From NCBI GenBank assembly GCA_028704885.1, contig JAQWEN010000001.1, positions 109,172-173,171 of the forward strand: a DNA stretch of 64,000 bases. Direction: 5' to 3'. The notes below the pieces were generated by a model. The model saw only the letters and a program-made list of their open reading frames with translations, did not search any database and was not told the DNA's origin. The stretch is from Candidatus Shapirobacteria bacterium (GTDB lineage Bacteria; Patescibacteriota; Microgenomatia; UBA12405). Below, piece by piece: positions 20,428 to 64,000 of the stretch; the first letter of the stretch is position 1; each line of letters begins with the position of its first letter. The translations under genes and the position numbers were made by a program.

Positions 20428-20436
20428 TCAGATACT

Positions 20437-37528: not shown

Positions 37529-37533
37529 AAACA

Positions 37534-37926: not shown

Positions 37927-38241
37927 ATGGCTTATGAAATATGTATTTTAAAGGTTGAAGAGTTTAAAAAGTTTGTTAATAAATTAGATTGTGATGGTAA
38001 AGCAAGATTGACTAGAGACATAGATTTCTTAAAAGAAAATGGATCCGGTTTAAAGATGCCATTTGCCAAAAAGATTGATAAAAAGCTTTGGGAATTAAGA
38101 ACCAGTGGTAAACAAAAAATTAGAATTATTTATTCTATTGTAGGGACTCAAATATATGTGGTTAATTGGTTTATTAAAAAAACACAAAAAACTCCGATTA
38201 AAGAATTAAAGACAGCAATTAAGCGATTGACAGAGATATAG
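37927..38241 (+). CDS. RelE/ParE-superfamily toxin of the Gp49/HigB-like type
   Basis: '...KKLWELRTSGKQKIRIIYSIVGTQIYVVNWFIKKTQKTPIKELKTAIKRL' matches Gp49-like (PF05973) toxins. The toxin-first gene order is as in higBA. Confidence 0.6.
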   Translation: MAYEICILKVEEFKKFVNKLDCDGKARLTRDIDFLKENGSGLKMPFAKKIDKKLWELRTSGKQKIRIIYSIVGTQIYVVNWFIKKTQKTPIKELKTAIKRLTEI

Positions 38242-38246
38242 CGTTT

Positions 38247-38534
38247 ATGCTATATTATTTTATGGATAACTGGCAAACAATAAAAAAAGAAATATTAAGC
38301 AATTCTGAAGTAAAAAAGACCTATGATGGGTTAGATGTGGAGTATCAGATATTAAGTGATATGGTTAGAATTAGAAATAAAAAGAAAATTACCCAAAAAG
38401 AGTTAGCAAAAAAGATGGGAACAACCCAGTCGGCTTTGTCGAGATTTGAAATGGGGGATGTAAACCCTAGTTTGGATTTTTTAAAGAAAGTGGCAATTGC
38501 TTTGGGAAGTAAATTGGTGGTGAGATTGGAATAA
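38247..38534 (+). CDS. XRE-family HTH antitoxin (HigA-like)
   Basis: 'ITQKELAKKMGTTQSALSRFEMGDVNPSLDFLKKVAIALG' is a helix-turn-helix. The gene lies 5 nt downstream of the toxin gene. Confidence 0.6.
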   Translation: MLYYFMDNWQTIKKEILSNSEVKKTYDGLDVEYQILSDMVRIRNKKKITQKELAKKMGTTQSALSRFEMGDVNPSLDFLKKVAIALGSKLVVRLE

Positions 38535-38535
38535 T

Positions 38536-42414: not shown

Positions 42415-42432
42415 TAAGCTATTTTACTATTT

Positions 42433-42846
42433 TTAGTAAAAGACCACCTTAACTTGTTGGGGGATAATGCTGTTTTTAGTTTTAGCAGTAACATCGAAAC
42501 GACCAGGAATATTGCTGGATAAATCAAAAACGGCCTTACCAGAATCGTCGGTAATGTTTTGAACTTCAGAGATACTGATTTGAGAGGAAGTAGTGAGACT
42601 AATATTTTGATTTGGGACACCGAGTCCACGACCGTCGAGAATAAAAACCGTAACGCGTATTTTTTCTTTATTATCGGCTTTGGCTTGAAGAGGAGAGGCA
42701 AAGAGATAGGAATTTTCTAAAACAACAGAAGATTGATTGCCGACTGAGGCTTTTTTAACGAAAATGGTGGTTCTTAAAACTAAAAAGACTGAGGCAATTA
42801 AAGCGATAGATAAAAAAAGAATGATAAATAAATATTTTTTATTCAC
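42433..42846 (-). CDS. Small TM-anchored Ig-like (Big-type) domain protein; paralog of 37115..37528; co-transcribed upstream of the LamG giant gene
   Basis: TM helix 'LFIILFLSIALIASVFLVL'. 'ASPLQAKADNKEKIRVTVFILDGRGLGVPNQNISL...ITDDSGKAVFDLSS...FDVTAKT...VKVVF'. Its stop lies 18 nt before the giant-gene start. Confidence 0.5.
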   Translation of the reverse strand: MNKKYLFIILFLSIALIASVFLVLRTTIFVKKASVGNQSSVVLENSYLFASPLQAKADNKEKIRVTVFILDGRGLGVPNQNISLTTSSQISISEVQNITDDSGKAVFDLSSNIPGRFDVTAKTKNSIIPQQVKVVFY

Positions 42847-49196: not shown

Positions 49197-49739
49197 ATGG
49201 ATTATCACAGAAGATCAATTCGATTGGATGGATTCGATTATTCAAACAATAGATATTATTTTGTGACGGTTTGTTGTCAAAACAGAGAAAAAATATTTGG
49301 TGAAATTGGTGTAGGGGCGGGTCTTGTGCCCGCCCTTATGGAAAATAAAATGATTTTGAATGATGTTGGGATTATGGTGAAAAAAATTATTTTGGAATAT
49401 TTTAATAAAAATAAATTAATTTTTTTGGATGAATTTATTATTATGTCTGATCATATTCATATGATTGTGGTGATTAAAAATAAATTTATAAATAATGATG
49501 TGAACGATGAAATAAATACAAGGGCGGGCACAAGACCCGCCCCTACATTGGGAATGATTATGGGTGAATTTAAATCAATAATTACCAATGAATATATTAA
49601 AAATATAAAAGAAAATAATTGGCCACGTTTTAATAAACGATTGTGGCAACGTAATTATTACGAAAGAATAATTCGCAATGAAAAAGAATATTTAATGATT
49701 AAAAAATATATTAAAGATAACCCTATAAATAAAAAGTAA
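49197..49739 (+). CDS. REP-associated tyrosine transposase (RAYT; IS200/Y1 HUH family) with two in-frame REP-like hairpin insertions
   Basis: 'YYFVTVCCQNRE' and 'SDHIHMIVV' give the HuH motif. 'LWQRNYYERIIRNEKEYL' is the catalytic Tyr region typical of RAYT/TnpA-REP. The segments 'GVGAGLVPAL' and 'TRAGTRPAPT' are encoded by GC-rich palindromes. Confidence 0.75.
   Translation: MDYHRRSIRLDGFDYSNNRYYFVTVCCQNREKIFGEIGVGAGLVPALMENKMILNDVGIMVKKIILEYFNKNKLIFLDEFIIMSDHIHMIVVIKNKFINNDVNDEINTRAGTRPAPTLGMIMGEFKSIITNEYIKNIKENNWPRFNKRLWQRNYYERIIRNEKEYLMIKKYIKDNPINKK
49311..49335. repeat. REP-like GC-rich hairpin (GTAG-gggcggg-tcttgtg-cccgccc) inside the RAYT gene
   Basis: gtaggggcgggtcttgtgcccgccc. Its inverted partner lies at 49523-49546. 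Confidence 0.75.
49523..49546. repeat. REP-like GC-rich hairpin, inverted copy ending ...CTAC; together with 49311-49335 it forms a REPIN-like pair
   Basis: gggcgggcacaagacccgcccctac is the exact reverse complement of the first copy. Confidence 0.75.
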
Positions 49740-49757
49740 TAGTGATAATATTGGGTT

Positions 49758-50060
49758 ATGAACGCAGAAAAACTGGTGAATAGTTTTGAAGAGTATTCAG
49801 AGACAGGGGGACAGTTGAACCAAGAAGGTTTTAATAAAGCAATGGAAATTAGAAAAATAATAAGTGGTCAAAGAGTTAAGGATTTTGGACCATCTTTTCA
49901 TCAAGTAAAAGGAATGGCGGAGAGATATAAAGTAGAAATTACTGAAGAACAAATTAATTTTTATATCTTATTAAGAGAAAGTAATGTTGGTGGTGAAAAT
50001 GGTGGAGTATGTGATAGGGTAATTTTTGATGAAACTCGTCGTTTATTGACTGGAGTATAA
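49758..50060 (+). CDS. Hypothetical protein
   Basis: 100-aa ORF with no recognisable motif. It sits tightly between the RAYT gene and the next ORF. Confidence 0.35.
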   Translation: MNAEKLVNSFEEYSETGGQLNQEGFNKAMEIRKIISGQRVKDFGPSFHQVKGMAERYKVEITEEQINFYILLRESNVGGENGGVCDRVIFDETRRLLTGV

Positions 50061-50067
50061 TTAAATT

Positions 50068-50307
50068 ATGAAAAAAGAAATAAAAACAGCGGAATGCTGC
50101 GAAAAAAAAGATCAAAAAAAATACCGCTGTAATTGCGGTGGAAATAATGGTTCAAATGGAGCTATTTATGGATTAAGCGTAATCGGAGCGCTGTTTTACT
50201 TTTTAAGTAAAGCAACTGGTTTTAGTATGGTGATGGTCGGAATTGGGAAATCAATTTTCTGGCCAGCAGTATTGATGTTTAAATTGCTGACTTATTTAGG
50301 GATGTAA
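50068..50307 (+). CDS. Small Cys-rich membrane protein, hypothetical
   Basis: 'CCEKKDQKKYRCNCGG' is followed by two hydrophobic helices. Confidence 0.35.
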   Translation: MKKEIKTAECCEKKDQKKYRCNCGGNNGSNGAIYGLSVIGALFYFLSKATGFSMVMVGIGKSIFWPAVLMFKLLTYLGM

Positions 50308-51153
50308 TTTTAGTTTTTTGATTTTTTTAATCCCCAAAATTATTCCAGCGATTAGTAACAAAAATAAAATAGGGGAGATGGGGAGGACGTAAAAAGAAGT
50401 ATCAAGAGGCGGGGTATTGAGAGCGGGATTTAAGACAACAGAGACTTTGTAGTGGCCGGGCCAAAGGGGAGGATTAAGGGAACAAGAACTTTCATTTAAA
50501 CAACTGATGTTACGGCTGTGGTGATTTAAAACATTGTCGGGACTTAATTCAAATTCTTTAATGGTTTTATCATTTTTAGTAATGGTAATTTTGCCATTAG
50601 TTTTAAAAAAGAAGTCGGAATTATTTTTAATTTGGCCGTTAATAGTGATGGAATTAAAAAAGACATCTTTTATTTTTGGGGAAATGGAAAAATTTTGAAT
50701 GGCGGATTCGACTTTGGGATTTTCGACATTAGAAACAGTTAATAAAAGATGGGAACCGATTTTGCCGGTGGCTTGGCTAAAATTATCATTAGATTCAATA
50801 GCATTTTGATTTTGAAAAACAAAAAAAGTGTAATAGTTGTCGGATAAGTCGGTATTAGAGTTAGTTTTTATTTTTAAAACTAATTGTTGTTTGGAATGGG
50901 CAGCTAAAGTAAAAGGTTGACCGATTTTAATATCAGAATTAGCCAGAGAAAAATCAATATTAGGATTATTAACGGCTTGATTATAATTAACCGAGCCGTC
51001 GGTACCACTGGGAATCCAAGGTAAAATTTCAGTATTAAGAGTAATTTCGGAATCAGAATTATTGAAAATGTCGTAGGCCTGGACAAGATTAATGCCGGGT
51101 TTTAAAACGTATTCTGATTGAGCTGGAGAGATGGATAAATTAAAGTTAGACAT
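50296..51153 (-). CDS. DUF916/DUF3324-like cell-surface protein (CscA-type), second locus
   Basis: The N-terminal 'SISPAQSEYVLKPGINLVQAYDIFNNSDSEITLNTEILPW' is a beta-rich domain. C-terminal TM 'ISPILFLLLIAGIILGI' then KKIKKLK. Same architecture as 43916..44920. Confidence 0.4.
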   Translation of the reverse strand: MSNFNLSISPAQSEYVLKPGINLVQAYDIFNNSDSEITLNTEILPWIPSGTDGSVNYNQAVNNPNIDFSLANSDIKIGQPFTLAAHSKQQLVLKIKTNSNTDLSDNYYTFFVFQNQNAIESNDNFSQATGKIGSHLLLTVSNVENPKVESAIQNFSISPKIKDVFFNSITINGQIKNNSDFFFKTNGKITITKNDKTIKEFELSPDNVLNHHSRNISCLNESSCSLNPPLWPGHYKVSVVLNPALNTPPLDTSFYVLPISPILFLLLIAGIILGIKKIKKLKLHP

Positions 51154-51161
51154 AGAGGGGT

Positions 51162-51926
51162 TTAATATTTTGGGATGGCGATGTAATTAATAGAATTTTG
51201 ATAAGTGCCGGCAGTTTGATCTGGAGAAATATTAACTTTATAAGTAATCGTGGCGATGTGATCCTTGACGGGAATATTTTCGGACATAATAATTTTGGCA
51301 GTTTCGCCGGCAGAATTATCAGCAAATTGACGGAAATAAGTGGAATTAGAGAAAAAACTAGAAGTACCATCACCACTGCCATTAAGACCAAAACCGTAAG
51401 CGGTACTGCTGGTCCAAACATCTGATGTTGATTCGGAGCAAGTATTAGAATCGCATTTAGTGTCAGGGATAGTAGAATTACCACCAATAGTTTTTAAGGG
51501 ATGATTGGCAATAGTAAGAATGTCATAGCCATGAGCGGTGGGAGTGCTGATGGTTAAAGTATTAGAGACAGTCGAGCCAACGCTAGGAACCAAATTGCCA
51601 AAATTTAAATCAAGATTACTAATTTGAAAAGAGAAAGGAATATTACTTTCGTAGATATATTGAAAACCAGCTTTGACAGTATAACCAGTGCTGTCATATT
51701 GACCGGGAGCATTTTGGCCAACAGAGTCGGTTAGAGTGTAAGTACTAGAAGTTTTTTTGCCACCAGTCATATTAAAGTTACCGAATTCAATATGGAAATT
51801 GTTGGAATCAAAAGTCTGAGCAAATAAGATGTTAGATCGTAGATGATAGATCGTAGATAAAAATAAAAAGGTTATAAAAAAAATAAGGGGTTTTTTATTC
51901 ATCTGATTCTTGATCAATTTGGGCAA
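51162..51926 (-). CDS. WxL-like surface protein (CscB/C-type), second locus
   Basis: Signal peptide. 'FHIEFGNFNMTG'. The Cys pair plus 'DVWTSST'. C-terminal 'AGTYQNSINYIAIPKY'. Paralogous to 44937..46364. Confidence 0.4.
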   Translation of the reverse strand: MPKLIKNQMNKKPLIFFITFLFLSTIYHLRSNILFAQTFDSNNFHIEFGNFNMTGGKKTSSTYTLTDSVGQNAPGQYDSTGYTVKAGFQYIYESNIPFSFQISNLDLNFGNLVPSVGSTVSNTLTISTPTAHGYDILTIANHPLKTIGGNSTIPDTKCDSNTCSESTSDVWTSSTAYGFGLNGSGDGTSSFFSNSTYFRQFADNSAGETAKIIMSENIPVKDHIATITYKVNISPDQTAGTYQNSINYIAIPKY

Positions 51927-52554
51927 TTAATTGTTCGGAAGAATTTAGAAGGGATTTGGCAGAATCTTTAATTTTTTTGGCTTTTTCTTTTTGACTAGGA
52001 GAAATAGAAGAAGATAAAAGTTCTGAACTGCTATCAATAATTTGGCAAAGACCGGTTTTAAGTTTTAAAGAGTGCCAAAGTAAAACATCGGTTTCGTCGG
52101 CAGAAATGATTTGATCATCTTTAATTTTGGCTAAAAATTGTTTGCCGATAAACCAGGCCAGAGGAGTGATTAATAAAAGAGAAGAGAGAGAAATGACAGA
52201 AAGGAAGGAATTGAGTGATTGTGATAGAATTAGAACTAGAAAAAAGGAATAAGAAAGAGTGGTGGTGGCTGGGTTTTGAAAGGCAATGAAAAATAAAAGG
52301 AAATAAATAAGAAAGAAAAAAGGAGAATTTAGGCCGTTGGTGGCGAAGACAATGATGTTGACTAAAAGAGCAATTAAATGAATAGAAAGAGTTTTTTTGG
52401 TGAAATAGAGAATTAGAAGGGTAATTGAGACTAGAGCGATTAATTGGGGAGCAAAATAAAGAAAATTAGAGACGGAAAAAAAGAAGGAAAATAAAGAAAT
52501 TAAAAAAAATAAAATAATACTAATAATCTGAGACATCATTATAGTATTAATCAT
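51895..52554 (-). CDS. Hypothetical polytopic membrane protein with a C-terminal Ser/Glu-rich cytoplasmic tail
   Basis: About five TM helices, then 'ISADETDVLLWHSLKL...KEKAKKIKDSAKSLL'. Confidence 0.4.
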   Translation of the reverse strand: MINTIMMSQIISIILFFLISLFSFFFSVSNFLYFAPQLIALVSITLLILYFTKKTLSIHLIALLVNIIVFATNGLNSPFFFLIYFLLFFIAFQNPATTTLSYSFFLVLILSQSLNSFLSVISLSSLLLITPLAWFIGKQFLAKIKDDQIISADETDVLLWHSLKLKTGLCQIIDSSSELLSSSISPSQKEKAKKIKDSAKSLLNSSEQLIAQIDQESDE

Positions 52555-52601: not shown

Positions 52602-53213
52602 ATGAGGTTGTTAGAAAAGATACAGAAATTAAAGATTGTAGATGGATTATTGGTGATCGGATTTTTGTTGGTGATTTTAGGAATCGGAATGAATTTTAAA
52701 GATCAGTTTTTGACAAAAGAAGAAACAAAAATAATATCAAAAGATGTTGGTTCTACTAGTAAAAATGATGTACAAGTTGATAGTGAAGTAGTTATTGATA
52801 TATCTGGTGAGGTGGAAAAAACTGGGGTTTATAAACTAAAAAATGGGTCAAGAATTGAAGATGTTTTAATAATGGCGGGAGGATTGAGTGCTAAGGCAGA
52901 TCGAGATTGGGTGGATAAAAATTTAAATAGAGCCGAAAAAGTTTATGATGGACAGAAGATATATATACCTAAAGTTGGGGATAATGTGATGATTAGTAGC
53001 ACCCCGCTGGTGCGGGGTGCTACTGTGGTGAGGCTTAATTCGGCAAGTTTGGAAGAACTGGATAAATTGGATGGAGTTGGTCCAGCAATTGCCCAAAGAA
53101 TTATTGATTATCGAACTGAAAATGGGGGATTTAAAAGTGTGGAGGAAATTAAATTAGTCCCAGGAATTGGCGATAAAATGTTTGAAAAAATAAAAAATGA
53201 AATTCAATTATAA
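52602..53213 (+). CDS. comEA: Competence protein ComEA (SLBB domain plus tandem helix-hairpin-helix)
   Basis: TM anchor. SLBB-like 'VVIDISGEVEKTGVYKLKNGSRIEDVLIMAGG'. HhH pair 'LNSASLEELDKLDGVGPAIAQRIIDYRTENGGFKSVEEIKLVPGIGDKMFEKI'. Confidence 0.85.
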   Translation: MRLLEKIQKLKIVDGLLVIGFLLVILGIGMNFKDQFLTKEETKIISKDVGSTSKNDVQVDSEVVIDISGEVEKTGVYKLKNGSRIEDVLIMAGGLSAKADRDWVDKNLNRAEKVYDGQKIYIPKVGDNVMISSTPLVRGATVVRLNSASLEELDKLDGVGPAIAQRIIDYRTENGGFKSVEEIKLVPGIGDKMFEKIKNEIQL

Positions 53214-53364: not shown

Positions 53365-54288
53365 ATGGAAAAATGGAAGAAATATTTAATTTGGTTAGGA
53401 ATATTTTTAGTAGTTATTTTTATATACAAGTTTATAGATAAGCAGGATTTGATACGGGTTATTTTTAAAAATTTACCACCGAGAGAAGCGTCATTAATGG
53501 CGGGAATGGTCTTTGGAGATAAAAATAATTTTGATAAAAATACCATTTTAAATTTTCAGGTGAGTGGGGTAATTCATATTATGGTGGTCAGTGGAACTAA
53601 TATAGTATTAGTGTTTAGAGGTTTAGTAGAAAGAATCGCTAGTTGGATAGGGCGGAAAAGAGCCATAATTTTGGGATTTGGAGTGACTTTGGTTTATATA
53701 AATTGGGTGGGATGGGAAATTCCGGCGGTCAGAGCTTTTTTGTTAATGAGTATTTTTTATTGGGCGCAACTTTTGGGAAGAAAATTTAGCCTATTTAGAG
53801 CCATAATGTTGATTATTTTAATAATGGTTTTGGCCGATTATCGAGTATTTTTGAGCGGCAGTTTTTATTTAAGTTTTGTGGCATTTGGAGCAGTGGTAAT
53901 TAATCTAAATAAGGAAAGAAGATGGTGGAGTGATTTATGGAATTCTTTTTGGGTGTCTCTATGGATTTTGCCGATATTAGTTTTATTTTTTGGAAAAATA
54001 AGCCTGGTGGCGCCATTAACCAATGCTTTAATTTTATTTTTAGTCGAAATAATTACGATTTTGGGGGTTTTGGGAAGTTTAATGGGATTAGTAATTCCGA
54101 TTTTGGGAAAAATTGTTTTATGGATAAGTTATCCATTATTAAAATACATACTATTAATAGTAGATGGGCTTTCCAGTTTTAAATTTGCTAGTATGGAAAT
54201 TAAATTTAATTGGATTTTTTTAGTTGGGTGGTATTTGGTATTAATATGTTTATTTATTAAAAAATCTTCATTACGGAATTTTTTATAA
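53365..54288 (+). CDS. comEC: ComEC membrane ('Competence') domain protein, the N-terminal part of a split comEC
   Basis: 'EASLMAGMVFGDKNNFDKNTILNFQVSGVIHIMVVSGTNIVLVF' matches the ComEC competence-domain signature 'LLlGd.s.l.....F...G..HllaiSGlhv'. Multiple TM helices. The last residues and the stop codon lie inside a family-2 repeat. Confidence 0.7.
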   Translation: MEKWKKYLIWLGIFLVVIFIYKFIDKQDLIRVIFKNLPPREASLMAGMVFGDKNNFDKNTILNFQVSGVIHIMVVSGTNIVLVFRGLVERIASWIGRKRAIILGFGVTLVYINWVGWEIPAVRAFLLMSIFYWAQLLGRKFSLFRAIMLIILIMVLADYRVFLSGSFYLSFVAFGAVVINLNKERRWWSDLWNSFWVSLWILPILVLFFGKISLVAPLTNALILFLVEIITILGVLGSLMGLVIPILGKIVLWISYPLLKYILLIVDGLSSFKFASMEIKFNWIFLVGWYLVLICLFIKKSSLRNFL

Positions 54289-54351: not shown

Positions 54352-55077
54352 ATGAAAATTAGAATTATTTTATTTGCGTCATTAATAGTTTTAGTGGTTT
54401 TATTTTGGGTGACTTTACCGGCGAAAAAAGTGGAAGTAATATTTTGTGATGTGGGTCAGGGCGATGCGACTTTAGTGACTTATAAAAACTGGCAGATGTT
54501 AATTGACACGGGTCCAAATAATAAAAAAGTGTTGACTTGCTTGAGTCGAAATATGCCGTTTTGGGACAAGACAATTGAATTATTAATGATCACCCATGGA
54601 GATAGTGATCATACCGGAGGATTAACAGATATTTCTAAATATTATAAAATTGAACAAAGTATTTACTCTAAAAATGTGAAACAGTTTGATTTAATTAGGA
54701 CTGATTGGATGACTTTTGAGGTGGTCAATTCTGGGCTGATTGATGATAATGAAAACTCAATCGCAGGTATTTTAAATTATAAAAATACTAAGATTTTTTT
54801 TAGCGGAGATATAACAGCGGAGGTAGAAAAAAAATTAGTGTGGCAAGGAATTTTAAAAGAGTCGGTAGATATTTTAAAGGTGAGTCATCATGGATCGAAA
54901 GACGGAACGAGTGAAGAATTATTAAATGTATTAAAACCGAAATTGGCAGTGATAAGTGTGGGGGCAAAAAATAGATTTGGTCATCCAACTAAAGAGGTAT
55001 TGAACCGCTTAAAAGAAAAAGGAATTGAAATTAAAAGAACTGACCAAGATGGAGAAGTGCATGTAATAGATAATTAA
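54352..55077 (+). CDS. comEC: ComEC C-terminal metallo-beta-lactamase-fold domain protein, the second half of the split comEC
   Basis: 'VIFCDVGQGDATLV', 'ITHGDSDHTGG' and 'VSHHGSKDG' are MBL motifs. 'VISVGAKNRFGHP' is the ComEC C-terminal signature. Confidence 0.75.
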   Translation: MKIRIILFASLIVLVVLFWVTLPAKKVEVIFCDVGQGDATLVTYKNWQMLIDTGPNNKKVLTCLSRNMPFWDKTIELLMITHGDSDHTGGLTDISKYYKIEQSIYSKNVKQFDLIRTDWMTFEVVNSGLIDDNENSIAGILNYKNTKIFFSGDITAEVEKKLVWQGILKESVDILKVSHHGSKDGTSEELLNVLKPKLAVISVGAKNRFGHPTKEVLNRLKEKGIEIKRTDQDGEVHVIDN

Positions 55078-55110
55078 GAACATAAAGAAGTAATAGATTT
55101 ACCCCTTGAT

Positions 55111-55440
55111 ATGGATGTAATAGATGCGCTAGACTGGATCGTGGAGAAGTGGATTTATAAAATTCGCAGATTGAGTTTGAACCAATTAAAGGCGTTGGAG
55201 GTTTTGGTGTCGGATAGAAACGGAATAATTGAAGCGAATGATTCCAGTAAAGAATTAAATCTAAAAGGAAAGAATTTAGGAGGAATATTTTCATCGTTAT
55301 CGAGACAGCAAATTGGAGGAGAAAGTATAATTTTAGCTTGGGGAAGGGCTAAAGGCGGGAGAGGTTTAAGATGGAAGTTGAACGAAAAAATAATAAATAA
55401 AGTAGAACTAAAAAAGTTAATAAAGGAGATTTTAAGATGA
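55111..55440 (+). CDS. Hypothetical small protein; the stop/start overlap (ATGA) shows translational coupling to the downstream giant gene
   Basis: 109-aa ORF. Its stop TGA shares a base with the ATG of 55437..62570. Confidence 0.4.
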   Translation: MDVIDALDWIVEKWIYKIRRLSLNQLKALEVLVSDRNGIIEANDSSKELNLKGKNLGGIFSSLSRQQIGGESIILAWGRAKGGRGLRWKLNEKIINKVELKKLIKEILR

Positions 55441-58400
55441 AATGGAGTAAAGTCTTTTTATTAGCCTGGATATTTTTTATCAGCAGTTTAATTTCGGCTC
55501 GAGTTTTTTATAGTAAATTTAAAACAGTTTTTGCAGCCCAAAAAATAATAACTTCAAGAGTAGATTTTGATTCGGGTTATTTTGAAGGAACGGAGAGTCA
55601 AAGTAAGGAAGGAGATTTGAAATTAAAAGCCAATGGAACTTGGAATCCAATGGTGTTTAAAACCCCAAAAGTGACATTGGTTAACCAATCAGCAATTACG
55701 ACAGATGGAAAAGATGTTTATTTATTGGCTGGAGGCGACAGATATTTTGCTAAATATATTTCAAACGAAGATAGATGGTTAACTTTGGAAAATGCACCTC
55801 ATTTGGTTTCCAATGGAGCAGATTTAGTGATGTTGGGAAACTATATCTATGCAATTTATGGAAGTTATACAAAAAATTTCAGCCGTTATTCAATAGCGAG
55901 CAACAGTTGGGAAGAAAAAAGTGATATGCCAGATTTATCGGCCAATGGATCGACTATTGAAACTGATGGAACTTATATTTATGCCTTAAGAGGAGGTGGA
56001 AATTCTGATTTTTGGAGATATAACCCGTCTAATGATAAGTGGTCTAGCTTAACAGCGCCACCAGCAACGATAAGTTCAGGAGCCAGTTTGGTTTATAAAG
56101 ATGGTTATTTGTATACTGCCAGAGGAGCTTCAACTCAAACTTTTTACAGGTACAACATTAGCAGTGGTGTTTGGTCAATGATGCAAAACATACCGGCGAC
56201 AGTAGGAAGTAATCATAAGTCAACAGTTTTAGGAAATTATATTTATGTAAATAGAGATACTAATACCAATAGTTTTTATCGATTTAATATTGGAACAACA
56301 GCTTGGGAAACAATTGCCAATTTACCACAAACGGCTCAATATGTGGGAGCGGTGGCGGTTGGGGATACAGCCACTGGTTTTGTTTATGTATTTAGAGGAA
56401 ATACTACTTATGATTTTTGGAAATATAATCCTAGAAATAATAGTTTTGTAGGTTTAAATGATTTACCAGGGGCACCAAATACTGGAGCTGATTTACTTTA
56501 TATGAATAATTATGTTTATTTCAGAAGAGGAGCAAGTGTCAATTCGTTTTATCGATATAATACGGCGGTGGGAGGAACTTGGGTAACGATGGCTAATGCG
56601 CCGGCAACTTTTGCGGATGATACCAGGGGAGTAAAGGCGGGAAATTATTTATATTATTTGAGAGGGAGCGGAGCAACAACTTTTTATCGATATGATCCTA
56701 ATAGTGGTGTTGGTGGAACTTGGGCGACAATGTTAGGTACACCAGCAGCTTTGGCGATTGGGGCCGGTGGAGCCTTGGCTTATCCAGGTTCAGGAAATTA
56801 TATTTATGCCACCAGAGGTGGAAGTTTTAAAACTTTTATGAGATATACGATTGGAGTTGGAGAAACTTGGGATGATGCAGTGGCAGCCGACTTACCAGAT
56901 AATGCCGAGAGTGGTTATGGTTCAAGGCTGATAAGTGATGGAACTGATATTTATTATATTTCAGGAAGCGGAATAACAAAAATTTATAAATACACGATTA
57001 TTGATAATACTTGGACTGAATTAGGTAATTTACCTTTTTCGCCTTATTACGGGACAGATATTAGTTATTATAATGGTAAAATTTATGCCCTGGCAGGTAA
57101 TTTGAAGGCTGATTATTGGGAATATACAATTTCGACTAACACTTGGAGATTACTGCCACCAATTCAAAATTATGGATTAACCGAAATTGGGGTTTGGAAT
57201 GGGGGATCGATAGCCGGTGATGGTAATGGAACTTTTTATATTGAAGCGGGGAATAATAATACTAGATTTTTTAGTTATAGCGTGGGAGCAAATAATTATC
57301 CGACCAGTGGAATTTGGACTAGTTCGACTCAAGATCTAAATTATGTTTCCAGTTGGGCACCAATGGGAATAGAAGCGAATCTGCCAAGTGGAAGCGGAGT
57401 AATCTGGGAAACTAGAACCAGCAGCGATCGAATAAATTGGGAAAATTGGAAAACTGGAGTGGGAACAAGTATAACTTCAACTCCAAATAGATATATTCAA
57501 ATAAGAGTAACTTTGACTTCTGACGGCAATCAGAGTCCAACTTTGAATTCAATAAATATTAATTACAATGGTGATATAACGGCGCCGAGCAACCCGACAA
57601 GGGTAGTTGGTTTATCTCAACAGGTGAGTGGAATTGGTTTGACTAACGGTCAAACTTATGCTTATTTAGCACCTCATTTTAATTGGAGCGGAGGATCTGA
57701 CATTCAAACTGGAATATCGGGATATTATGTTTATTTTGGTCCATCAGCTGAGGCTGATCCAGAAATTGAAGGTTCTTTTAGGACTGAGGCAAGTTATTTG
57801 GTAAGTGATCCAATGGAACAAAAAGCTTATTATTTAAGATTAAAAACGGTTGATGGAGCTGGTAATAAAAGTGAAGCAACAACAATTTTTACTTATATTT
57901 ATAACGGAGTATCGCCACCAACAATTTTAAATCAAAGTTTAACAAGTCATTTTGGATTAGGAACAACTAGCAATGTAAATATTAGCAATGATCAAATTAA
58001 ATTGGCGGCTAAGTCAGGATTTTGGCAACAGGAAAGACTAGGTCAATTATCAGGGACGATTAATTACGGGTCTGGTTTTGCTTATTCAGCATCGAGAAAT
58101 AAATTGTATATTTTAAAAGGAAATGCAACTTCTTTTTATCAATATGATTTGAAAACCAATGTGGGGTCAACTTTGGCTAATGCACCGGCAGTGGCTTATC
58201 ATGGTAGTGATTTAGTGGAGGGTCCAAGTGGGTATTTATATGCCTTGAGAGGAAATAATACTAATGGTTTTTGGTGTTATGATTTGGCAAATAATACTTG
58301 GTCTGATGTGATGGCAGCGGATACGCCACAACCAGTTTATTATGGAGGATCTTTGATTTTTGATGGAGATAGATATATTTATGCTTTGAAAGGAAATACG

Positions 58401-61400
58401 GATGACACTTTTATGAGGTATGACACGATGACTGATAATTGGGAAATATTAGAAAATATTAATTTTGGAGCGCCAACAGAACAATTAAATAACAATGTTT
58501 ATGATGGAGCCGATTTGGTTTTTGACGGTAATCATAATATTTATGCCACTCAGGGTGGAAGCCGAACTGGATTTGCAGCTTACAACATTAGCAGCGGTAA
58601 ATGGAGTCAATTGGAAAATCTGCCGGTGATTGCAGGACCAGGATCTCAAATAGAATATGATTCGGATACTAATGCAATTTATTATGTGTCTGGTTCTAGT
58701 AAAACTTTTTTCTATAAATATAGTCTAGAAACAAGAAGTTGGAGTGAATTGAATGAAGTACCAAATTTAGTTTCTGCTGGAGCGGCTCTTAAAAAGGTGG
58801 GAGGAAATTTATATTTGGCCATCGGTGGTGGAAGTGCCAATATGTATAAATATAATGTGGCCAAAAATGCCTGGTCGGTGCCAACCATGAATTTATTTGG
58901 TGGGTGGTTTAGAAATAGTTATAGTCGACCATTTGGAGCGGGGACAGATATTATCAAAGGGGATGGAGATAACTATTATATGACCAGAGGAAATTATGAT
59001 AATTTGTTTGCAAGATACAATTCTAAAACAGGGGAAATAACAAAAATGGCTGATGCACCAGCTGGTTTTACCAGTGGAGGCGACTTGGTTTATGAAAGTG
59101 TCCACAATAAAATTTATGCCGTAACTAATCCTTATTATCGAAAATTATTTATTTACGATGTGGCAACTGATGTATGGAGCGAAGAAATAGACGATCCGCC
59201 TCCGGTTGACCCGGCTGACGGTGGGGCGATGTCTTTTGATGGGTCTAGATATATTTATTGGACTAGAGGAATAGGTCAAAGTTTTTATAAATTTGATACT
59301 CAAGGAGTGGGAACTAGTAAATGGTCGGTTCAACCAAATGTACCTCTAGCAATCGGAGCTGGTGGAGATTTAGTAGCTAAAGGAGATTATGTTTATGCCT
59401 TGAGAGGAGCAACAACAAATGGATTTTTGAGATATACAATTGGGACGACAACATGGTCAGACGTAGCAGTGGCTGACTTACCGGCTGGAGTTAATGTGGC
59501 GGCTGATGGATTTTTGGTTGATTTAGGCGGTGATAAGTTGATGGCTTGTCGAGGAGCGACAACAACGGTTTGCTATGAATATTCAATTAGTGGTAATAAT
59601 TGGCAGTTAGTTAATGGAACTTTTGCTCCCTATATTTATGCTGGAGCGGCTGGAGCTAGCAATGGAGAAGGTCAGGCTTTTATAATACCAGGTAATGGAA
59701 ATTTAAATAGTTCAAGTAATGGATTATATGGATATATCAGCCAAAATGAAAATTCATCATTTGAAGAAAGTGGAAGTTATATAAGTCCGAGTCATGATTT
59801 AGGAATGGTTTACCGATTTGCCAATCTTAAGGTGGGAGTATCGATGGCAAATAATACTAATCTAGATGTTTACACTCGAACTTCAAATGATAATGTGACA
59901 TGGAATGATTGGACTGAGGCCAGTGATAAAAAAATAATTGGAAATGATTGGGTCTATAAAATTAATTCGAGCTCTGGGCGATATTTGATGGTAAAACTGA
60001 ATTTATCAACTGGGGATGGAATAAAAACAGGAATAATTAATGATTACCAGATCAGTTATTATCAAGATGAAATAGCGCCAAATAACCCAAGTGAATTAAA
60101 GGTTTATCAAAACTTAAATAAAGGAAGCACTTTAGTGTCTGGAGTTTGGAATAATAGCACGGCGCCTTATTTTGAATGGAATAATGGAAGCGATGGTGAA
60201 AGTGGATCAGGAGTGGCGGGATATTATACATATTTGGGGTTAGGGGAAACGGCTGATCCGGCAGTTTTAGGAACTTATACAACAGCGGTTAATTCTATTG
60301 GAGTAACACTAACTAGTGGTCAAACTTATTTTTTCAGATTAAAAACCAAAGATAATGCCAATAATGTTAGTAGTGAAGTAGGAACAACTTTTGTTTATAA
60401 ACTTGACAATACACCACCAACTAATCCAAATACGATTTCAGTTGATCCACCAGGTTATACGGCAACTAATAGTTTTAATTTCACTTGGTCATCGGCTACT
60501 GATGTTGGATCTTCGATTGGTTTTTATTGTTATAAGGTAGCTGTTGGAGGAAGCGAAACTTGTATCGAAGGAATAGGAACAACTGGAGTGAACGGAGTTC
60601 AGGCTTATCAAACAGGAACTAATACTTTTTATCTAAGAACAAAAGATATAGCCGGTAATTATGCTAGCGATTATGCCACGGCTAGTTTTTATTACAGTTC
60701 AATAGCTCCAGGAGCACCGAAAAATTTAGAAGTAGGGCCAACCAGTAATTCAATTAACGAGTTCTCATTTTCTTGGCAGGCACCAGATTTATTTTATGGT
60801 CAACAATCTGGTTTAAAATATTATTATTCGATTAATGAACAACCTAAAGCTTCTAATGTTAATAAAATTGGATTGGCGGCGACTTATTTATCAAAAGGAC
60901 CATATGCAACTAGAAGAGACAGTAATACTTTTTATGTAGTGGCGATGGATGAGGCCGGAAATATTGATTATAATAATTTTGTTTCGGTTGATTTTGAGGC
61001 AAAAACTTCAGCTCCGGGAATTCCTAAAAATATTGATATTTCTGATGTATCAGTGAAAGAAACAAAAAATTGGAGATTGGCTTTGGCTTGGGAAAGTCCG
61101 GAAGCTAGCGGATCAGGAATTGCCAATTATAAGGTTTATCGATCGGGTGATACTAATGCCAATTGTAGTACTAATATAAATGATTTTACTAGTATTTCTT
61201 CGACCAGCAGTGAATCTTTTGTAGATACAAATTTAAAACAAGCAAAATATTATTATTGTGTGACAGCTTGTGATTCAACTAGTGAATGTAGTGCACCGTC
61301 AAGTACAGTGTCTTTAACTCCTGATGGAAAATGGCGAGTGGCACCAACTTTATTAGATGGACCAAATGCATCGGTTAAAACTAAATCAGCAATCATAACT

Positions 61401-62570
61401 TGGACAACCAGCAGAACGGCAAGCTCTTTTGTGAAATATGGAAAAGGTTCTGGAGATTATGGTGACGAAGTGGGAACTTCAGATCAAATTAGTGCTCATG
61501 AAATTAGTTTGTCGGGTCTAGATCCAGGAACAACATATTATTACAAGACGTTATGGACTGATGAAGATGGAAATATGGGTGAATCAGCAGAACAAAGTTT
61601 CTCAACCAATGCGGCTCCTATGGTGTCGGCGGTAAAAGTAAATAATGTGAGTTTATATTCAGCTTATGTCGACTTTACTCTTAAAAATGCAGTTAAAGCG
61701 GTGGTTCAGTATGGAAAAACTAGTAGTTATGGAAGTAATCAGGAAATCACCACTTCAAAAACAGAGGGAAGTTATATGGTAAAAATTGAAGAATTAGAGG
61801 AAGGAACACCTTATCATTTAAGAATTCAGGCTTTGGACGAAGAGGGAAATATTTTTACTAGTGATGATTATGTTTTTGAAACTTTACCAGTGCCAAAACT
61901 TTTAGATATTAAAACTCAACAAGTTAAAGGAATGGCCACAGCAACTCTAAGAGTATTATGGAAATCAAATACTTCAGTAAGTTCAATAATGACATATTAC
62001 CCAAGTGGTAAAACAGAGATGGCTAAAGATCAAATTAAATTAACGTTAGCAAAAAGCCACGAAATGCTTTTAAGAGATTTGTATGACGACACTGAATATA
62101 CCTTAGTTTTTAAAGGAAGAGATGCCATGGGAAATAGTGCTGAAAATGTAACTTTGAAATTCAAAACATCAGCCGATATGAGACCGCCAGTAATTTCCGG
62201 TTTAAGGCTAGAGTCGGTGGTTGATGGAATCGGTGAAGAGGCAAAGGCTCAAGTGGTGGTTTATTGGAACACTGATGAACCGGCGACTTCACAAGTAGAA
62301 TATGGTCAGGGAACTGGGAGTGATTATCCAAGTAAAAGCCAAAAAGATTCTAAATTAACTTTGAATCACAGTTTAACAATTCCAGAATTAAAACCGTCAG
62401 AAGTTTATCACTTTAGAGTGGTGACTGAAGATAAAATTGGAAATATAAATATGTCTTACGACAATGTGGTGATAACTTCAAAAGAGACTAAATCTGCTTT
62501 AAACTTAGTAATTGAAAATTTATCTAAGAGTTTTGGGTTCGTCAGTAATTTATCGGGGGTAGCCAAATGA
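55437..62570 (+). CDS. Giant (2,377 aa) secreted protein with about 25 or more Kelch-like beta-propeller blade repeats and several fibronectin-III-like domains
   Basis: Signal peptide 'MKWSKVFLLAWIFFISSLISA'. Recurrent blades of about 48 aa: 'G(N/D)YIY...G.....F(Y/W)RYN....W'. FN3-like segments include 'APSNPTRVVGLSQQVSG...YYVYFG' and 'ASVKTKSAIITWTTSRTASSFVKYG...TTYYYKT'. Confidence 0.75.
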   Translation: MKWSKVFLLAWIFFISSLISARVFYSKFKTVFAAQKIITSRVDFDSGYFEGTESQSKEGDLKLKANGTWNPMVFKTPKVTLVNQSAITTDGKDVYLLAGGDRYFAKYISNEDRWLTLENAPHLVSNGADLVMLGNYIYAIYGSYTKNFSRYSIASNSWEEKSDMPDLSANGSTIETDGTYIYALRGGGNSDFWRYNPSNDKWSSLTAPPATISSGASLVYKDGYLYTARGASTQTFYRYNISSGVWSMMQNIPATVGSNHKSTVLGNYIYVNRDTNTNSFYRFNIGTTAWETIANLPQTAQYVGAVAVGDTATGFVYVFRGNTTYDFWKYNPRNNSFVGLNDLPGAPNTGADLLYMNNYVYFRRGASVNSFYRYNTAVGGTWVTMANAPATFADDTRGVKAGNYLYYLRGSGATTFYRYDPNSGVGGTWATMLGTPAALAIGAGGALAYPGSGNYIYATRGGSFKTFMRYTIGVGETWDDAVAADLPDNAESGYGSRLISDGTDIYYISGSGITKIYKYTIIDNTWTELGNLPFSPYYGTDISYYNGKIYALAGNLKADYWEYTISTNTWRLLPPIQNYGLTEIGVWNGGSIAGDGNGTFYIEAGNNNTRFFSYSVGANNYPTSGIWTSSTQDLNYVSSWAPMGIEANLPSGSGVIWETRTSSDRINWENWKTGVGTSITSTPNRYIQIRVTLTSDGNQSPTLNSININYNGDITAPSNPTRVVGLSQQVSGIGLTNGQTYAYLAPHFNWSGGSDIQTGISGYYVYFGPSAEADPEIEGSFRTEASYLVSDPMEQKAYYLRLKTVDGAGNKSEATTIFTYIYNGVSPPTILNQSLTSHFGLGTTSNVNISNDQIKLAAKSGFWQQERLGQLSGTINYGSGFAYSASRNKLYILKGNATSFYQYDLKTNVGSTLANAPAVAYHGSDLVEGPSGYLYALRGNNTNGFWCYDLANNTWSDVMAADTPQPVYYGGSLIFDGDRYIYALKGNTDDTFMRYDTMTDNWEILENINFGAPTEQLNNNVYDGADLVFDGNHNIYATQGGSRTGFAAYNISSGKWSQLENLPVIAGPGSQIEYDSDTNAIYYVSGSSKTFFYKYSLETRSWSELNEVPNLVSAGAALKKVGGNLYLAIGGGSANMYKYNVAKNAWSVPTMNLFGGWFRNSYSRPFGAGTDIIKGDGDNYYMTRGNYDNLFARYNSKTGEITKMADAPAGFTSGGDLVYESVHNKIYAVTNPYYRKLFIYDVATDVWSEEIDDPPPVDPADGGAMSFDGSRYIYWTRGIGQSFYKFDTQGVGTSKWSVQPNVPLAIGAGGDLVAKGDYVYALRGATTNGFLRYTIGTTTWSDVAVADLPAGVNVAADGFLVDLGGDKLMACRGATTTVCYEYSISGNNWQLVNGTFAPYIYAGAAGASNGEGQAFIIPGNGNLNSSSNGLYGYISQNENSSFEESGSYISPSHDLGMVYRFANLKVGVSMANNTNLDVYTRTSNDNVTWNDWTEASDKKIIGNDWVYKINSSSGRYLMVKLNLSTGDGIKTGIINDYQISYYQDEIAPNNPSELKVYQNLNKGSTLVSGVWNNSTAPYFEWNNGSDGESGSGVAGYYTYLGLGETADPAVLGTYTTAVNSIGVTLTSGQTYFFRLKTKDNANNVSSEVGTTFVYKLDNTPPTNPNTISVDPPGYTATNSFNFTWSSATDVGSSIGFYCYKVAVGGSETCIEGIGTTGVNGVQAYQTGTNTFYLRTKDIAGNYASDYATASFYYSSIAPGAPKNLEVGPTSNSINEFSFSWQAPDLFYGQQSGLKYYYSINEQPKASNVNKIGLAATYLSKGPYATRRDSNTFYVVAMDEAGNIDYNNFVSVDFEAKTSAPGIPKNIDISDVSVKETKNWRLALAWESPEASGSGIANYKVYRSGDTNANCSTNINDFTSISSTSSESFVDTNLKQAKYYYCVTACDSTSECSAPSSTVSLTPDGKWRVAPTLLDGPNASVKTKSAIITWTTSRTASSFVKYGKGSGDYGDEVGTSDQISAHEISLSGLDPGTTYYYKTLWTDEDGNMGESAEQSFSTNAAPMVSAVKVNNVSLYSAYVDFTLKNAVKAVVQYGKTSSYGSNQEITTSKTEGSYMVKIEELEEGTPYHLRIQALDEEGNIFTSDDYVFETLPVPKLLDIKTQQVKGMATATLRVLWKSNTSVSSIMTYYPSGKTEMAKDQIKLTLAKSHEMLLRDLYDDTEYTLVFKGRDAMGNSAENVTLKFKTSADMRPPVISGLRLESVVDGIGEEAKAQVVVYWNTDEPATSQVEYGQGTGSDYPSKSQKDSKLTLNHSLTIPELKPSEVYHFRVVTEDKIGNINMSYDNVVITSKETKSALNLVIENLSKSFGFVSNLSGVAK

Positions 62571-63376
62571 TGAATAAAAATAAAGAAATAATTTTAAAAA
62601 TTGAAAATGTAAAAATGGATTTTAATGTGGGAGGTCAAATTGTACCGGTATTAAAAGGAATTAGTTTAGATATCAACCAAGGCGACTTTGCAGTTATTTT
62701 TGGACCGTCTGGCTGTGGCAAATCAACCCTTTTACATTGTATTTTAGGAATGGAAAAACCAACTTCCGGAAAAGTTTTAATTGAGGGGACGGAAATGGGG
62801 GCAATGATTGAAGATGATGTGGTTAGGTTTAGAAAAACTAGAATTGGAATTGTGTTTCAGCAATCGATTTGGATCAAATCTTTAAATGTACTAGAGAATG
62901 TAAGTTTTCCTAATTTATTGAAAGGAATGACTAAAGAGGAGGCTCAAAGACTGGCATTAGAGACTCTTAAAGACGTTAAATTAGATAATTGGGCTAATTA
63001 TAATCCAAGTTCATTGTCTGGCGGTCAACAGCAAAGAGTAAGTTTAGCTAGAGCTTTAACTTTGGATCCAGCAATAATAGTAGCTGATGAACCAACGGGA
63101 AATTTAGATACAGTGGCTGGTGATGAATTGATAAATTTATTGGTAAATTTAAATAAAGAGAAAGGAAAAACAATTGTGATGGTTACCCATGATTTGGAAT
63201 ATTTAAAATTTGCCAATAAATTATTTCATATTATTGATGGTGAATTAGTGGAACAATTTGATAATGCTGGGGCAATAAAAATGTCAGGTTCTCTAAGAAC
63301 TAAAAAGGGAGAAAGAACACAAAAAACAGTTTGTCATAAGGATTATTTAGAATCTAAAGGTACAACATGCAAATAA
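62567..63376 (+). CDS. ABC transporter ATP-binding protein (MacB/LolD/FtsE-like)
   Basis: Walker A 'GPSGCGKSTLL'. ABC signature 'LSGGQQQRVSLARAL'. Walker B 'IIVADEPTGNLD'. H-loop 'MVTHD'. The start overlaps the giant-gene stop (ATGA). Confidence 0.85.
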   Translation: MMNKNKEIILKIENVKMDFNVGGQIVPVLKGISLDINQGDFAVIFGPSGCGKSTLLHCILGMEKPTSGKVLIEGTEMGAMIEDDVVRFRKTRIGIVFQQSIWIKSLNVLENVSFPNLLKGMTKEEAQRLALETLKDVKLDNWANYNPSSLSGGQQQRVSLARALTLDPAIIVADEPTGNLDTVAGDELINLLVNLNKEKGKTIVMVTHDLEYLKFANKLFHIIDGELVEQFDNAGAIKMSGSLRTKKGERTQKTVCHKDYLESKGTTCK

Positions 63377-64000
63377 TTAATAAAATAAAATCGTTTAGTT
63401 TAAAGGCATTTTTGGCTAGGTTTAAATCATCGGTTTTATTTATCTGGTCCAATATTGTATTTTTGGCAGTGCTTTTTGTTTATGTAATTAGAGGTTTGTT
63501 GAAATATTTTACGAGAATGAAATTGTTAGGGAAATTGTTTTTGCTAATAAAAACTGAAGTTTTGATTAATTTATTGACTAAATTAATGTATAAAATTGAT
63601 GTTAATGAAGATGGTGGAGTAACCAAAAGTTATTTAATAGAGTTGGCTTTTAGAAATATGAAAGCTAAAAGAAATAGGGCGATAGTGACAGTGGGAGGAG
63701 TCGCCTTAGGGGTAGGAGCAATTGTGTTTTTGGTGTCAATTGGCTATGGTTTGGAACAATTGGTAATTAGTAGAGTGGCAAAATTGGATGAATTAAAAAT
63801 AGCTGATGTAAGTTTGGGTAAAGCTTTAACTGTAAAACTTAATGATGAAACAATAGAAAAAATAAAATCTTTTAAAGATGTAGATCAGGTAATTCCGGTG
63901 GTATCGATGGTATCAAAAATAAATTACAATAATTCAGTTTTTGATGTAATGTCGTTTGGAGTAGACGAAAGATATATAAAAATGACCAATCCAGTATTTG
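63367..64000 (+). CDS. FtsX/MacB-type ABC transporter permease; 5' part, it continues beyond the window
   Basis: I translated from the ATG overlapping the ATPase stop. 'FRNMKAKRNRAIVTVGGVALGVGAIVFLVSIGYGLEQ' is the first TM and start of the periplasmic domain typical of the MacB/FtsX family. No stop codon before position 64000. Confidence 0.6.
   Translation, partial: MQIINKIKSFSLKAFLARFKSSVLFIWSNIVFLAVLFVYVIRGLLKYFTRMKLLGKLFLLIKTEVLINLLTKLMYKIDVNEDGGVTKSYLIELAFRNMKAKRNRAIVTVGGVALGVGAIVFLVSIGYGLEQLVISRVAKLDELKIADVSLGKALTVKLNDETIEKIKSFKDVDQVIPVVSMVSKINYNNSVFDVMSFGVDERYIKMTNPVF

Follow-up and report, generated by a model that had tools for sequence, protein, structure and literature searches.

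Conserved genetic linkage of a giant Kelch/FN3 protein and a MacB-type ABC transporter in Microgenomates

Here, we analysed a 64,000-nucleotide (nt) stretch of DNA from a Candidatus Shapirobacteria bacterium (contig JAQWEN010000001.1, positions 109,172 to 173,171 of the forward strand), in the following called the window, with a focus on a gene cassette at its 3' end. The cassette consists of a small open reading frame (ORF), a gene for a giant protein, and the ATPase and permease genes of a MacB-type ATP-binding cassette (ABC) transporter (Table 1). Pfam assigns Kelch and FN3/Pur_ac_phosph_N domains to the giant protein, ABC_tran to the ATPase, and MacB_PCD and FtsX to the permease. The permease gene is cut by the window end, but is complete in a second assembly of the same contig (L001, identified by exact sequence match), where it codes for 699 amino acids (aa) and is directly followed by a convergent gene; the cassette thus ends at the permease.

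Table 1 Features of the cassette and of the giant protein. Positions are those of the window unless another locus is named.
Feature	Position	Strand	Details
Direct repeats GTAATAGAT, three copies	55063..55125	+	copies at 55063, 55090 and 55117, 27-nt spacing
Small ORF	55111..55440	+	109 aa as called from ATG 55111
Giant Kelch/FN3 gene	55437..62570	+	2377 aa
Giant, N-terminal Sec-type signal peptide (predicted)			about aa 1-33
Giant, body			two diverged units of ~800 aa, each with Kelch blades, beta-sandwich and FN3-like part
Giant, C-terminal array			FN3/Pur_ac_phosph_N-type domains, then amphipathic helix
Giant, C-terminal core	60012..62570	+	aa 1526-2377: beta-sandwich, FN3 array and tail
Giant, C-terminal amphipathic helix	62481..62546	+	from an alignment of 32 C-termini
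ABC ATPase gene	62567..63376	+	269 aa
Permease gene, N-terminal part	63367..64000	+	N-terminal 211 aa, cut by window end
Complete permease	L001 8498-10597		699 aa

A first-pass annotation of this DNA had described the ORFs together with ATGA stop/start overlaps on both sides of the giant gene, and we found them in the ORF list and in the DNA exactly as claimed: one between small ORF and giant gene at 55437-55440 (..AAGATGAAATGG..), the other between giant and ATPase gene at 62567-62570 (..CCAAATGATGAAT..). The overlap that it had reported between ATPase stop and permease start is likewise present and is 10 nt long, as the permease ATG at 63367 lies within the last ATPase codons in a different frame (ATGCAAATAA). 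An AAGGAG Shine-Dalgarno sequence is located 8 nt 5' of the ATG of the giant gene. Short overlaps are common in the window (5/32 same-strand gene pairs) and by themselves thus prove little; the only two exact 4-nt overlaps among these pairs are the two junctions of the giant gene. What goes beyond chance is not the overlaps as such, but the conservation of short junctions: across about 75 independent lineages, the gaps lie mostly between -4 and +5 nt. Scans for promoter and terminator consensus sequences at the start and end of the cassette gave counts not above shuffled background and no terminator, and are thus uninformative in DNA this rich in AT.

A sequence search with the permease yielded 157 relatives at E <= 1e-5 among 8,000 scored candidates, and those carrying a source name came from Microgenomates lineages or were labelled only as Patescibacteria or metagenome. 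Three genomic contexts, with permease identities of 80%, 65% and 51%, all had the order giant Kelch/FN3 gene, ATPase, permease. We then used an alignment of the permease to scan GTDB representatives, a single genome for each species, and obtained 399 loci, the best 80 of which were taken with 10-kb flanks and compared, ORF by ORF, with the window proteins. The ATPase gene is found directly 5' of the permease gene in 76/80 loci, the other four being three contig edges and one fusion (L087), and a giant homologue is found directly 5' of the ATPase gene in 73 loci with three exceptions, all contig edges. With L087 included, the order giant-ATPase-permease, whose conservation in relatives the first-pass annotation had named as the point to check, is present in 74 of 74 testable loci. 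Clustering of the 849 flanking genes left the giant, the ATPase and the permease as the only universal families, while the next most frequent one, a membrane rhodanese-like protein, occurs in 34/80 loci. More than 10 different families sit 5' of the giant gene, some in divergent orientation, and ComEA/ComEC are neighbours of the cassette only in the closest relatives of the window. Since the flanks vary while the triad stays, the linkage is not residual synteny, and gene order indicates that the triad is kept as an obligatory and tightly packed unit across Microgenomates. Median identities to the orthologues are 51% for the giant, 52% for the ATPase and 39% for the permease.

Among the neighbours in the best 80 loci, no conserved gene for a HlyD/MacA-type adaptor or a TolC-like protein was found, the kind of partner that the first-pass annotation had proposed to look for. 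The recurrent neighbours identified by Pfam are the membrane rhodanese-like protein, a prepilin peptidase and a sortase; an M16 peptidase and a beta-lactamase-like protein, identified otherwise or by eye, also recur. The rhodanese-like protein is membrane-anchored and has about 217 aa. Its gene is located on the same strand 3' of the permease gene in most of its loci (e.g. L046 34-702; range L021-L086) and 5' of the giant gene in three, mostly in lineages with a permease ~40% identical to that of the window, some of them titled Roizmanbacteria. We considered it as a module member and rejected it, as it is absent from the window and from Shapirobacteria-type loci.

The linkage was also seen from the other end of the cassette, when metagenome contigs were scanned with an alignment of the C-terminal 430 aa of the giant protein. 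In all 26 clear orthologue loci with downstream DNA (L088-L113; at least ~36% identity), the ATPase gene comes next, usually followed by the permease gene, and matches at 31% identity or less are generic FN3 arrays. Several variants of the module were found. ATPase and permease are fused in one ORF in L103 (7274-10141) and L087 (9143-12043), which resemble canonical MacB, and in L121 a single long ORF matches the ATPase at its N-terminus; the distant module L117 has a convergent ABC pair. L053 carries two complete divergent modules in tandem (699-11833 and 11830-21830), in which each giant has its own ATPase and permease, and in L007 (6811-12043), which looks like a partly collapsed duplication, a chimeric ORF located between two ATPase genes joins a permease N-terminus to the C-terminal FN3 part of a giant. 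That modules duplicate and diverge as whole units, as in L053, argues for a pair-specific function. The suggestion of the first-pass annotation that the MacB-type transporter serves the giant is hence supported by the linkage in 74 of 74 loci, by the search from the C-terminus, by the whole-unit duplication and by the transporter being no Lol, FtsEX or MacB equivalog.

Kelch motifs of the giant protein are spread over aa about 65-640 and 880-1500 and score above the Pfam gathering thresholds (Kelch_6 96 bits, Kelch_1 64, Kelch_3 53, Kelch_4 50); the protein also matches fn3 and Pur_ac_phosph_N and contains seven D-x-x-G-N domain-end motifs. Its internal duplication is seen via homologues (reference residues 8-847 versus 905-1662), whereas a self-comparison of the giant by blastp (E<=1e-3) found no internal repeat. 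Searching the PDB by sequence returned only generic Kelch proteins for the N-terminal part (KLHL20, 1.6e-10) and no match for the C-terminal 877 aa. In hydropathy analysis, the only hydrophobic segment covers aa 3-24, and 31 full-length orthologues share an AxA-type site followed by a conserved mature N-terminus (..TITSRVDFDxG..SKEGEIKLK..), a pattern that we read as the signature of a cleaved Sec signal peptide. The signal peptide lacks a lipobox, and neither a transmembrane (TM) anchor nor a sortase or other known sorting motif was found in the giant, which also left the NCBIfam sorting-signal models unmatched.

Identity of the giant to its orthologues is ~50% along the full length across Microgenomates and peaks at aa 1850-2100. 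As it is conserved like the ATPase and more than the permease, the giant is not a fast-evolving adhesin. Transporter-linked giant variants of 1,400-2,990 aa share only the C-terminal core (reference residues about 1526-2372). The conserved end comprises the last ~30 residues, with an amphipathic helix that contains ..TKSALNLVIENLSKSFGFV.. (family consensus TPK-S-T-K-D-A-L-N-L-V-I-x-N-L-S-K-T-F-G-F-L) and a short basic tail. Among all 21-mers of the protein, this helix ranks at the 99.7th percentile of hydrophobic moment; with a mean hydropathy of about 0.1, it is too little hydrophobic for a TM helix. The motif hydrophobic-x-x-hydrophobic-I-x-x-L-x-x-x-F-G-W/F-L may be a wider, undescribed C-terminal element of surface proteins in the candidate phyla radiation (CPR).

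All motifs of the ATPase are intact in the translation (Walker A GPSGCGKST, signature LSGGQQQR, Walker B IIVADEPTGNLD, H-loop VTHD). It belongs to PF00005 (3e-34), and its best NCBIfam matches are all below the curated cut-offs: LolD (TIGR02211) with 211 bits against 308, FtsE with 180 against 265, and MacB (NF007826) with 179. The same holds for the permease, a PF02687 FtsX and PF12704 MacB_PCD protein that reaches 73 bits for MacB (NF007826; cut-off 966), 69 for LolCE (TIGR02212; 362) and 27-30 for the FtsX models (225-255). Its structure was predicted with AlphaFold2 on P0001, an identical partial protein without the first 39 aa, and the model matches MacB, LolC/E, YtrF and FtsX, with YbbAP also among the structural matches. 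Long stalk helices are predicted at residues 63-98, 509-552 and 567-611 (P0001 numbering). Hydropathy points to four canonical TM helices, with TM1 parted from TM2-4 by an extracytoplasmic domain of ~430 aa, which is composed of a Porter/Sabre core, a lineage-specific all-beta insert of ~120 aa and a disordered linker; G279, W294, G295, W319 and a Cys pair are among its conserved residues. A fifth, strongly hydrophobic segment at aa 23-41 (L001 8564-8620; window 63433-63489) follows a positively charged N-terminus and precedes the canonical TM1, within N-terminal 90 aa that are poorly conserved. Were this segment to cross the membrane, the topology usual for MacB would be inverted, and it may therefore be a re-entrant or hairpin element. 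Each module has one permease gene. Sequence and fold place the transporter in the type VII ABC (MacB/FtsX fold) superfamily, and its scores put it outside MacB, LolCDE and FtsEX proper. In the source databases, relatives are labelled 'antimicrobial peptide transport system permease' or 'lipoprotein release' permease, and the giants 'hypothetical' or 'FN3 domain-containing'.

Sequence comparison indicates that the small upstream ORF is a real gene. The homologues of its protein form 62 clusters, each of them labelled 'hypothetical', and a search of 1.84 billion proteins yielded only 100 representatives. In relatives, an in-frame TGA is located just 5' of a conserved ATCGTGGA, at which most homologues start, and the gene hence probably starts at GTG 55141, coding for 99 aa. 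Neither Pfam nor NCBIfam models matched the protein, the MarR, MarR_2 and HTH_27 models included, and distant family members gave a single sub-threshold Pfam match, to MarR_2 (18 bits); a signal peptide and a TM segment are absent. Its AlphaFold2 model (predicted local distance difference test score 87.7) has the topology H-H-b-H-H-wing-H, and a Foldseek search returned the MarR-family proteins Rv0880, ZitR, AdcR and MepR as top matches (probability 1.0, TM-score about 0.55-0.6, E about 1e-3), with almost all of the top 50 from the MarR family (probability about 1.0, TM-score 0.5-0.6). The product is predicted to adopt a winged-helix, MarR-like fold and is probably a cytoplasmic regulator. It shares with MarR proteins the winged helix-turn-helix with flanking helices in the model, but has 99 aa compared to about 140-150 aa in MarR proteins with their full dimerisation domain. 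Of the 52 loci that extend far enough upstream, 14 have the gene directly 5' of the giant gene, as judged by a family hidden Markov model. These 14 are scattered over the tree, and no further copy was found at any other place in the loci, which suggests that the gene is an accessory but exclusive member of the cassette.

Upstream of this gene, the window carries three of its four exact GTAATAGAT copies, the first of which lies within the last codons of the gene for the ComEC metallo-beta-lactamase (MBL) domain. WATAGAT occurs 5' of the small gene with a mean of 1.81 copies per 240 nt (16 loci) versus 0.05 expected, a ~36-fold enrichment, compared to a mean of 0.18 copies per 240 nt in 38 loci without the small gene; L008 and L009 have seven copies each, with spacings in multiples of 9 nt. 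No inverted repeats were found 5' of the small gene, and the ATAGAT repeat array is a plausible candidate for an operator or iteron array. The first-pass annotation had noted a small upstream ORF at each of the three giant genes of the window. These ORFs (142, 137 and 109 aa) do exist, but the common theme does not hold: they are mutually dissimilar, their folds are integrase SAM-like, Big_1 and winged helix, respectively, and the one described here is present in only 14/52 loci. We therefore rejected the three as one family.

Why should these bacteria keep a giant exported protein tied to an ABC transporter of its own? MacB-fold transporters have no transmembrane substrate channel and perform mechanical work on extracytoplasmic partners, as known from FtsEX-EnvC/PcsB/CwlO, LolCDE and MacAB. 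For the transporter described here, mechanotransmission without passage of a substrate through the membrane is suggested by the predicted fold. We hypothesise, with confidence evenly divided for and against, that Sec exports the giant and that the permease, as its membrane anchor, afterwards holds it and actuates or positions it. Export would proceed via the N-terminal signal peptide with its AxA site, and the cleaved protein would itself carry no anchor. Contact with the extracytoplasmic domain of the permease would be made by the invariant FN3 core at the C-terminus of the giant, and the long stalk helices would pass on ATP binding and hydrolysis in the manner of FtsEX-EnvC/PcsB and MacB. 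The resulting stalk movement would hold and move, or activate, the giant at the cell surface, so that the ABC would serve as anchor and actuator of the giant, not as its channel. The winged-helix protein, where present, would probably regulate the cassette, including itself, by binding to the repeat array.

While the genetic coupling is firmly established, this mechanism is inferred from context, sequence and predicted structure, and several points weigh against it. The adjacency of a gene for a large secreted protein to ABC genes fits a substrate or processing relation equally well. To our knowledge, translational coupling to ftsEX is not usual among the established FtsEX partners. A few homologues of the giant, all of them distant, have no ABC genes: L116 (34% identity) is followed by unrelated genes, read as hydrogenase-like, and L119 by ~1 kb of DNA without ABC. 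The C-terminal motif of the giant also occurs on smaller or unrelated FN3 proteins without ABC (P0224, P0219, L123, L130 and L133) and is therefore not an ABC-specific docking signal; P0224 (L168 8001-9368), which has 455 aa with signal peptide, four FN3 domains and the tail, and P0219 (L169 1-1851) are both named distant homologues of the giant, and neither has an ABC neighbour. Furthermore, the distant modules L118, L120 and L129 keep the pairing with a short permease of 406-419 aa that lacks the insert, and the enlarged extracytoplasmic domain is thus not essential to pairing. Finally, the additional hydrophobic segment at aa 23-41 of the permease could alter its topology.

FtsEX systems are among the closest known ones. 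They share with the present transporter the type VII ABC architecture, with an FtsX-fold permease and a LolD/FtsE-type ATPase. FtsEX has no substrate channel either; ATP hydrolysis reshapes a secreted partner bound to the extracytoplasmic domain, and in monoderm bacteria neither an adaptor nor an outer-membrane protein is needed for this (partners PcsB, CwlO and RipC; EnvC in Gram-negatives). The extracytoplasmic domain of FtsX has ~100 aa, in contrast to ~430 aa of the MacB_PCD type with a beta insert here, and the partner here is a 260-kDa Kelch/FN3 protein instead of a coiled-coil regulator of a peptidoglycan hydrolase; in all lineages, its gene belongs to one overlapping operon with the ABC genes. 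The module includes neither a hydrolase nor a coiled-coil partner, and its FtsX and FtsE scores stay below the equivalog cut-offs. MacAB-TolC and MacB-like pumps of Gram-positives (Spr0693-0695, YknXYZ) resemble the permease in Porter/Sabre core, 4-TM FtsX domain and stalk helices, and the fused ORFs of L087 and L103 have the ATPase joined to the permease as in MacB. MacB substrates such as the enterotoxin STII are first exported by Sec, as we propose for the giant. In contrast to MacAB-TolC, the module conserves neither a MacA/HlyD adaptor nor TolC, its partner is a giant protein and not a small molecule or peptide, and the MacB equivalog score is far below its cut-off. The general view is that CPR bacteria have no outer membrane, and in such a bacterium the absence of adaptor and TolC is expected.

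A Lol-like device for release or assembly would make use of the same genomic linkage in another way, a possibility that we consider rather unlikely. The giant would be tethered to the outer leaflet by an uncleaved signal peptide or by its C-terminal helix, and the ABC would extract this handle and thereby release the giant or insert it into wall or surface layer, acting catalytically and not as part of a stable complex. This corresponds to the concept offered by LolCDE, in which a membrane-embedded handle of a Sec-exported protein is pulled from the outer leaflet. The strongly amphipathic tail could lie in the membrane interface, LolC/LolE and YbbAP are among the structural matches of the permease, LolD is the best NCBIfam match of the ATPase, and large secreted-protein genes often precede a dedicated ABC, such as those of the S-layer protein RsaA and of RTX adhesins. 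However, the same tail occurs on FN3 proteins without ABC and is hence independent of the machine, and coupling in about 75 lineages suggests a similar output of the partners instead of an abundant substrate and a scarce transporter. The module has a single permease gene in place of LolC and LolE, the giant has no lipobox, LolA-like acceptor and LolB are absent, and the LolCE and LolD models score below cut-off.

Giant and transporter could also be independent neighbours that are merely co-regulated, the ABC acting in envelope stress, efflux or wall homeostasis like YtrEF or an antimicrobial-peptide pump. We regard this as improbable. YtrEF of Bacillus subtilis (ytrGABCDEF; PDB 9o9x) is a MacB-type permease with a separate ATPase in a monoderm; the ytr operon encodes its own winged-helix repressor, YtrA of the GntR family, and is tied to cell-envelope properties, and overexpression of YtrBCDEF leads to a thicker cell wall and blocks competence (PMC8060467). 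The database label 'antimicrobial peptide transport system permease' of relatives and the existence of ABC-less relatives of the giant's C-terminus would fit this explanation as well. On the other hand, YtrF has 436 aa, lacks the insert and is only 21% identical, the ytr operon contains no giant, the cassette contains no YtrBCD-like genes, and its regulator is an unclassified 99-aa winged-helix protein and not a GntR protein. Moreover, the linkage in 74 of 74 loci with 4-nt overlaps over class-level divergence, while all other neighbours change, and the parallel duplication and divergence of whole modules (L053) speak against independence, as does the lineage-specific extracytoplasmic insert of the permease, which is without precedent in small-molecule pumps.

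That the ABC itself translocates the giant, in type-I-like secretion of a giant adhesin or S-layer protein, is very improbable. As in RsaA-RsaDE and LapA-LapBCE, the gene for a very large repetitive surface protein is directly followed by dedicated ABC genes, and a C-terminal element is conserved. However, all orthologues carry an N-terminal Sec-type signal with AxA site instead of a C-terminal secretion signal alone, and the ABC has the 4-TM FtsX/MacB fold of type VII and not the 6-TM fold of HlyB-type exporters; N-terminal Sec signal and channel-less fold together argue against secretion of the giant across the membrane by the ABC. In addition, no membrane-fusion or outer-membrane component accompanies the module, and the same tail occurs without any ABC. 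The chance that a housekeeping Lol/FtsEX operon just happens to adjoin the giant gene is negligible and, as far as comparative genomics can decide, this is the only rival that the genomic data exclude: LolD and FtsE are indeed the best NCBIfam matches of the ATPase and short overlaps are common in compact genomes, but all these matches and the FtsX models remain below their cut-offs, synteny beyond the triad is not conserved, and the giant-less housekeeping operon that the first-pass annotation had named as the contrary case was not encountered, ATPase and permease never being without a giant in the 74 testable loci.

The window contains several further features of note, starting with its other giant genes. 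A 3,895-aa giant ORF (24254-35941, minus strand) has a single Pfam match, Peptidase_S74 at aa 3378-3454, a domain that acts as intramolecular chaperone in tail-spike proteins of phages and in endosialidases. The protein may be a fibre of phage origin or a surface fibre whose C-terminus is autoproteolytic. The start of the giant ORF is overlapped by the 142-aa ORF (35928-36356, minus strand), which has integrase N-terminal SAM-like domains only and no catalytic domain. A 1,292-aa giant (38536-42414, minus strand) carries four Laminin_G_3 domains and DUF2341 and has small Big_1-domain proteins on both sides (42433-42846, minus strand; 37055-37528, plus strand), with a Gp49/HigB-like toxin gene at 37927-38241 in the same region (36900-42846). 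Next to the cassette, ComEA (52602-53213) precedes a ComEC that is split into two plus-strand ORFs, the Competence domain at 53365-54288 (307 aa) and the MBL domain at 54352-55077 (241 aa); ComEC is also split in L003 and L008, and L005 appears to retain the MBL part only. An IS200-like Y1 transposase fragment (49197-49739, a weak match) is followed by three minus-strand ORFs of 285, 254 and 219 aa without Pfam family, and this region (49197-52554) is located between pyruvate phosphate dikinase and ComEA. The genes for 23S rRNA (9929-12896) and 5S rRNA (13062-13178) lie in the window without a 16S rRNA gene; tRNA-Ala (9681) is just upstream of them, a GH18 gene and a gene with a VTT domain lie between tRNA-Ile (7490) and this group, and a gene for a '23S rRNA-intervening sequence protein' is found at 22660-23019. 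Finally, a plus-strand cluster at 3028-7377 encodes a membrane protein with 7TM_transglut, an ATPgrasp_ST protein whose C-terminus is Zn-protease-like, and two ATP-grasp ligases similar to RimK, and is a possible peptide or amino-acid ligation system.

Full-text literature searches on Microgenomates, Patescibacteria and CPR with Kelch, MacB, FtsX and giant proteins, and on YtrEF, returned no paper on the module. The module unites a permease of 699 aa that carries a lineage-specific insert, a giant Kelch/FN3 protein in overlapping frames as its partner, and an optional private winged-helix regulator, a combination that has not been reported. The linkage also provides a rule for annotating these permeases, which now carry the names 'antimicrobial peptide' or 'lipoprotein release' permease, and these giants, now 'hypothetical' or 'FN3 domain-containing'.

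The Microgenomates, a large branch of the CPR/Patescibacteria, are uncultured, and their cell-surface biology is essentially unknown. In this class, a giant surface protein with ~50% identity over 2,377 residues is always accompanied by its own channel-less ABC machine. If giant and transporter form a complex, a giant beta-propeller/FN3 protein would become a new kind of partner in mechanotransmission as it is performed by FtsEX, LolCDE and MacB, a concrete candidate for an envelope or host-contact apparatus would be at hand, and several hundred paired orthologues could be used for co-evolution analysis and structure prediction. A bolder version of the anchor-and-actuator hypothesis, which we put forward tentatively and think more doubtful than probable, is that a MacB-type motor in a single membrane swings or extends the 260-kDa double-Kelch/FN3 arm that it anchors, as a lineage-wide, undescribed machine. 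If this is true, the motor-driven arm could grab a host cell or substrate or remodel the envelope; it would add a functional class to the partners of type VII ABC transporters and would possibly be core to the episymbiotic lifestyle.

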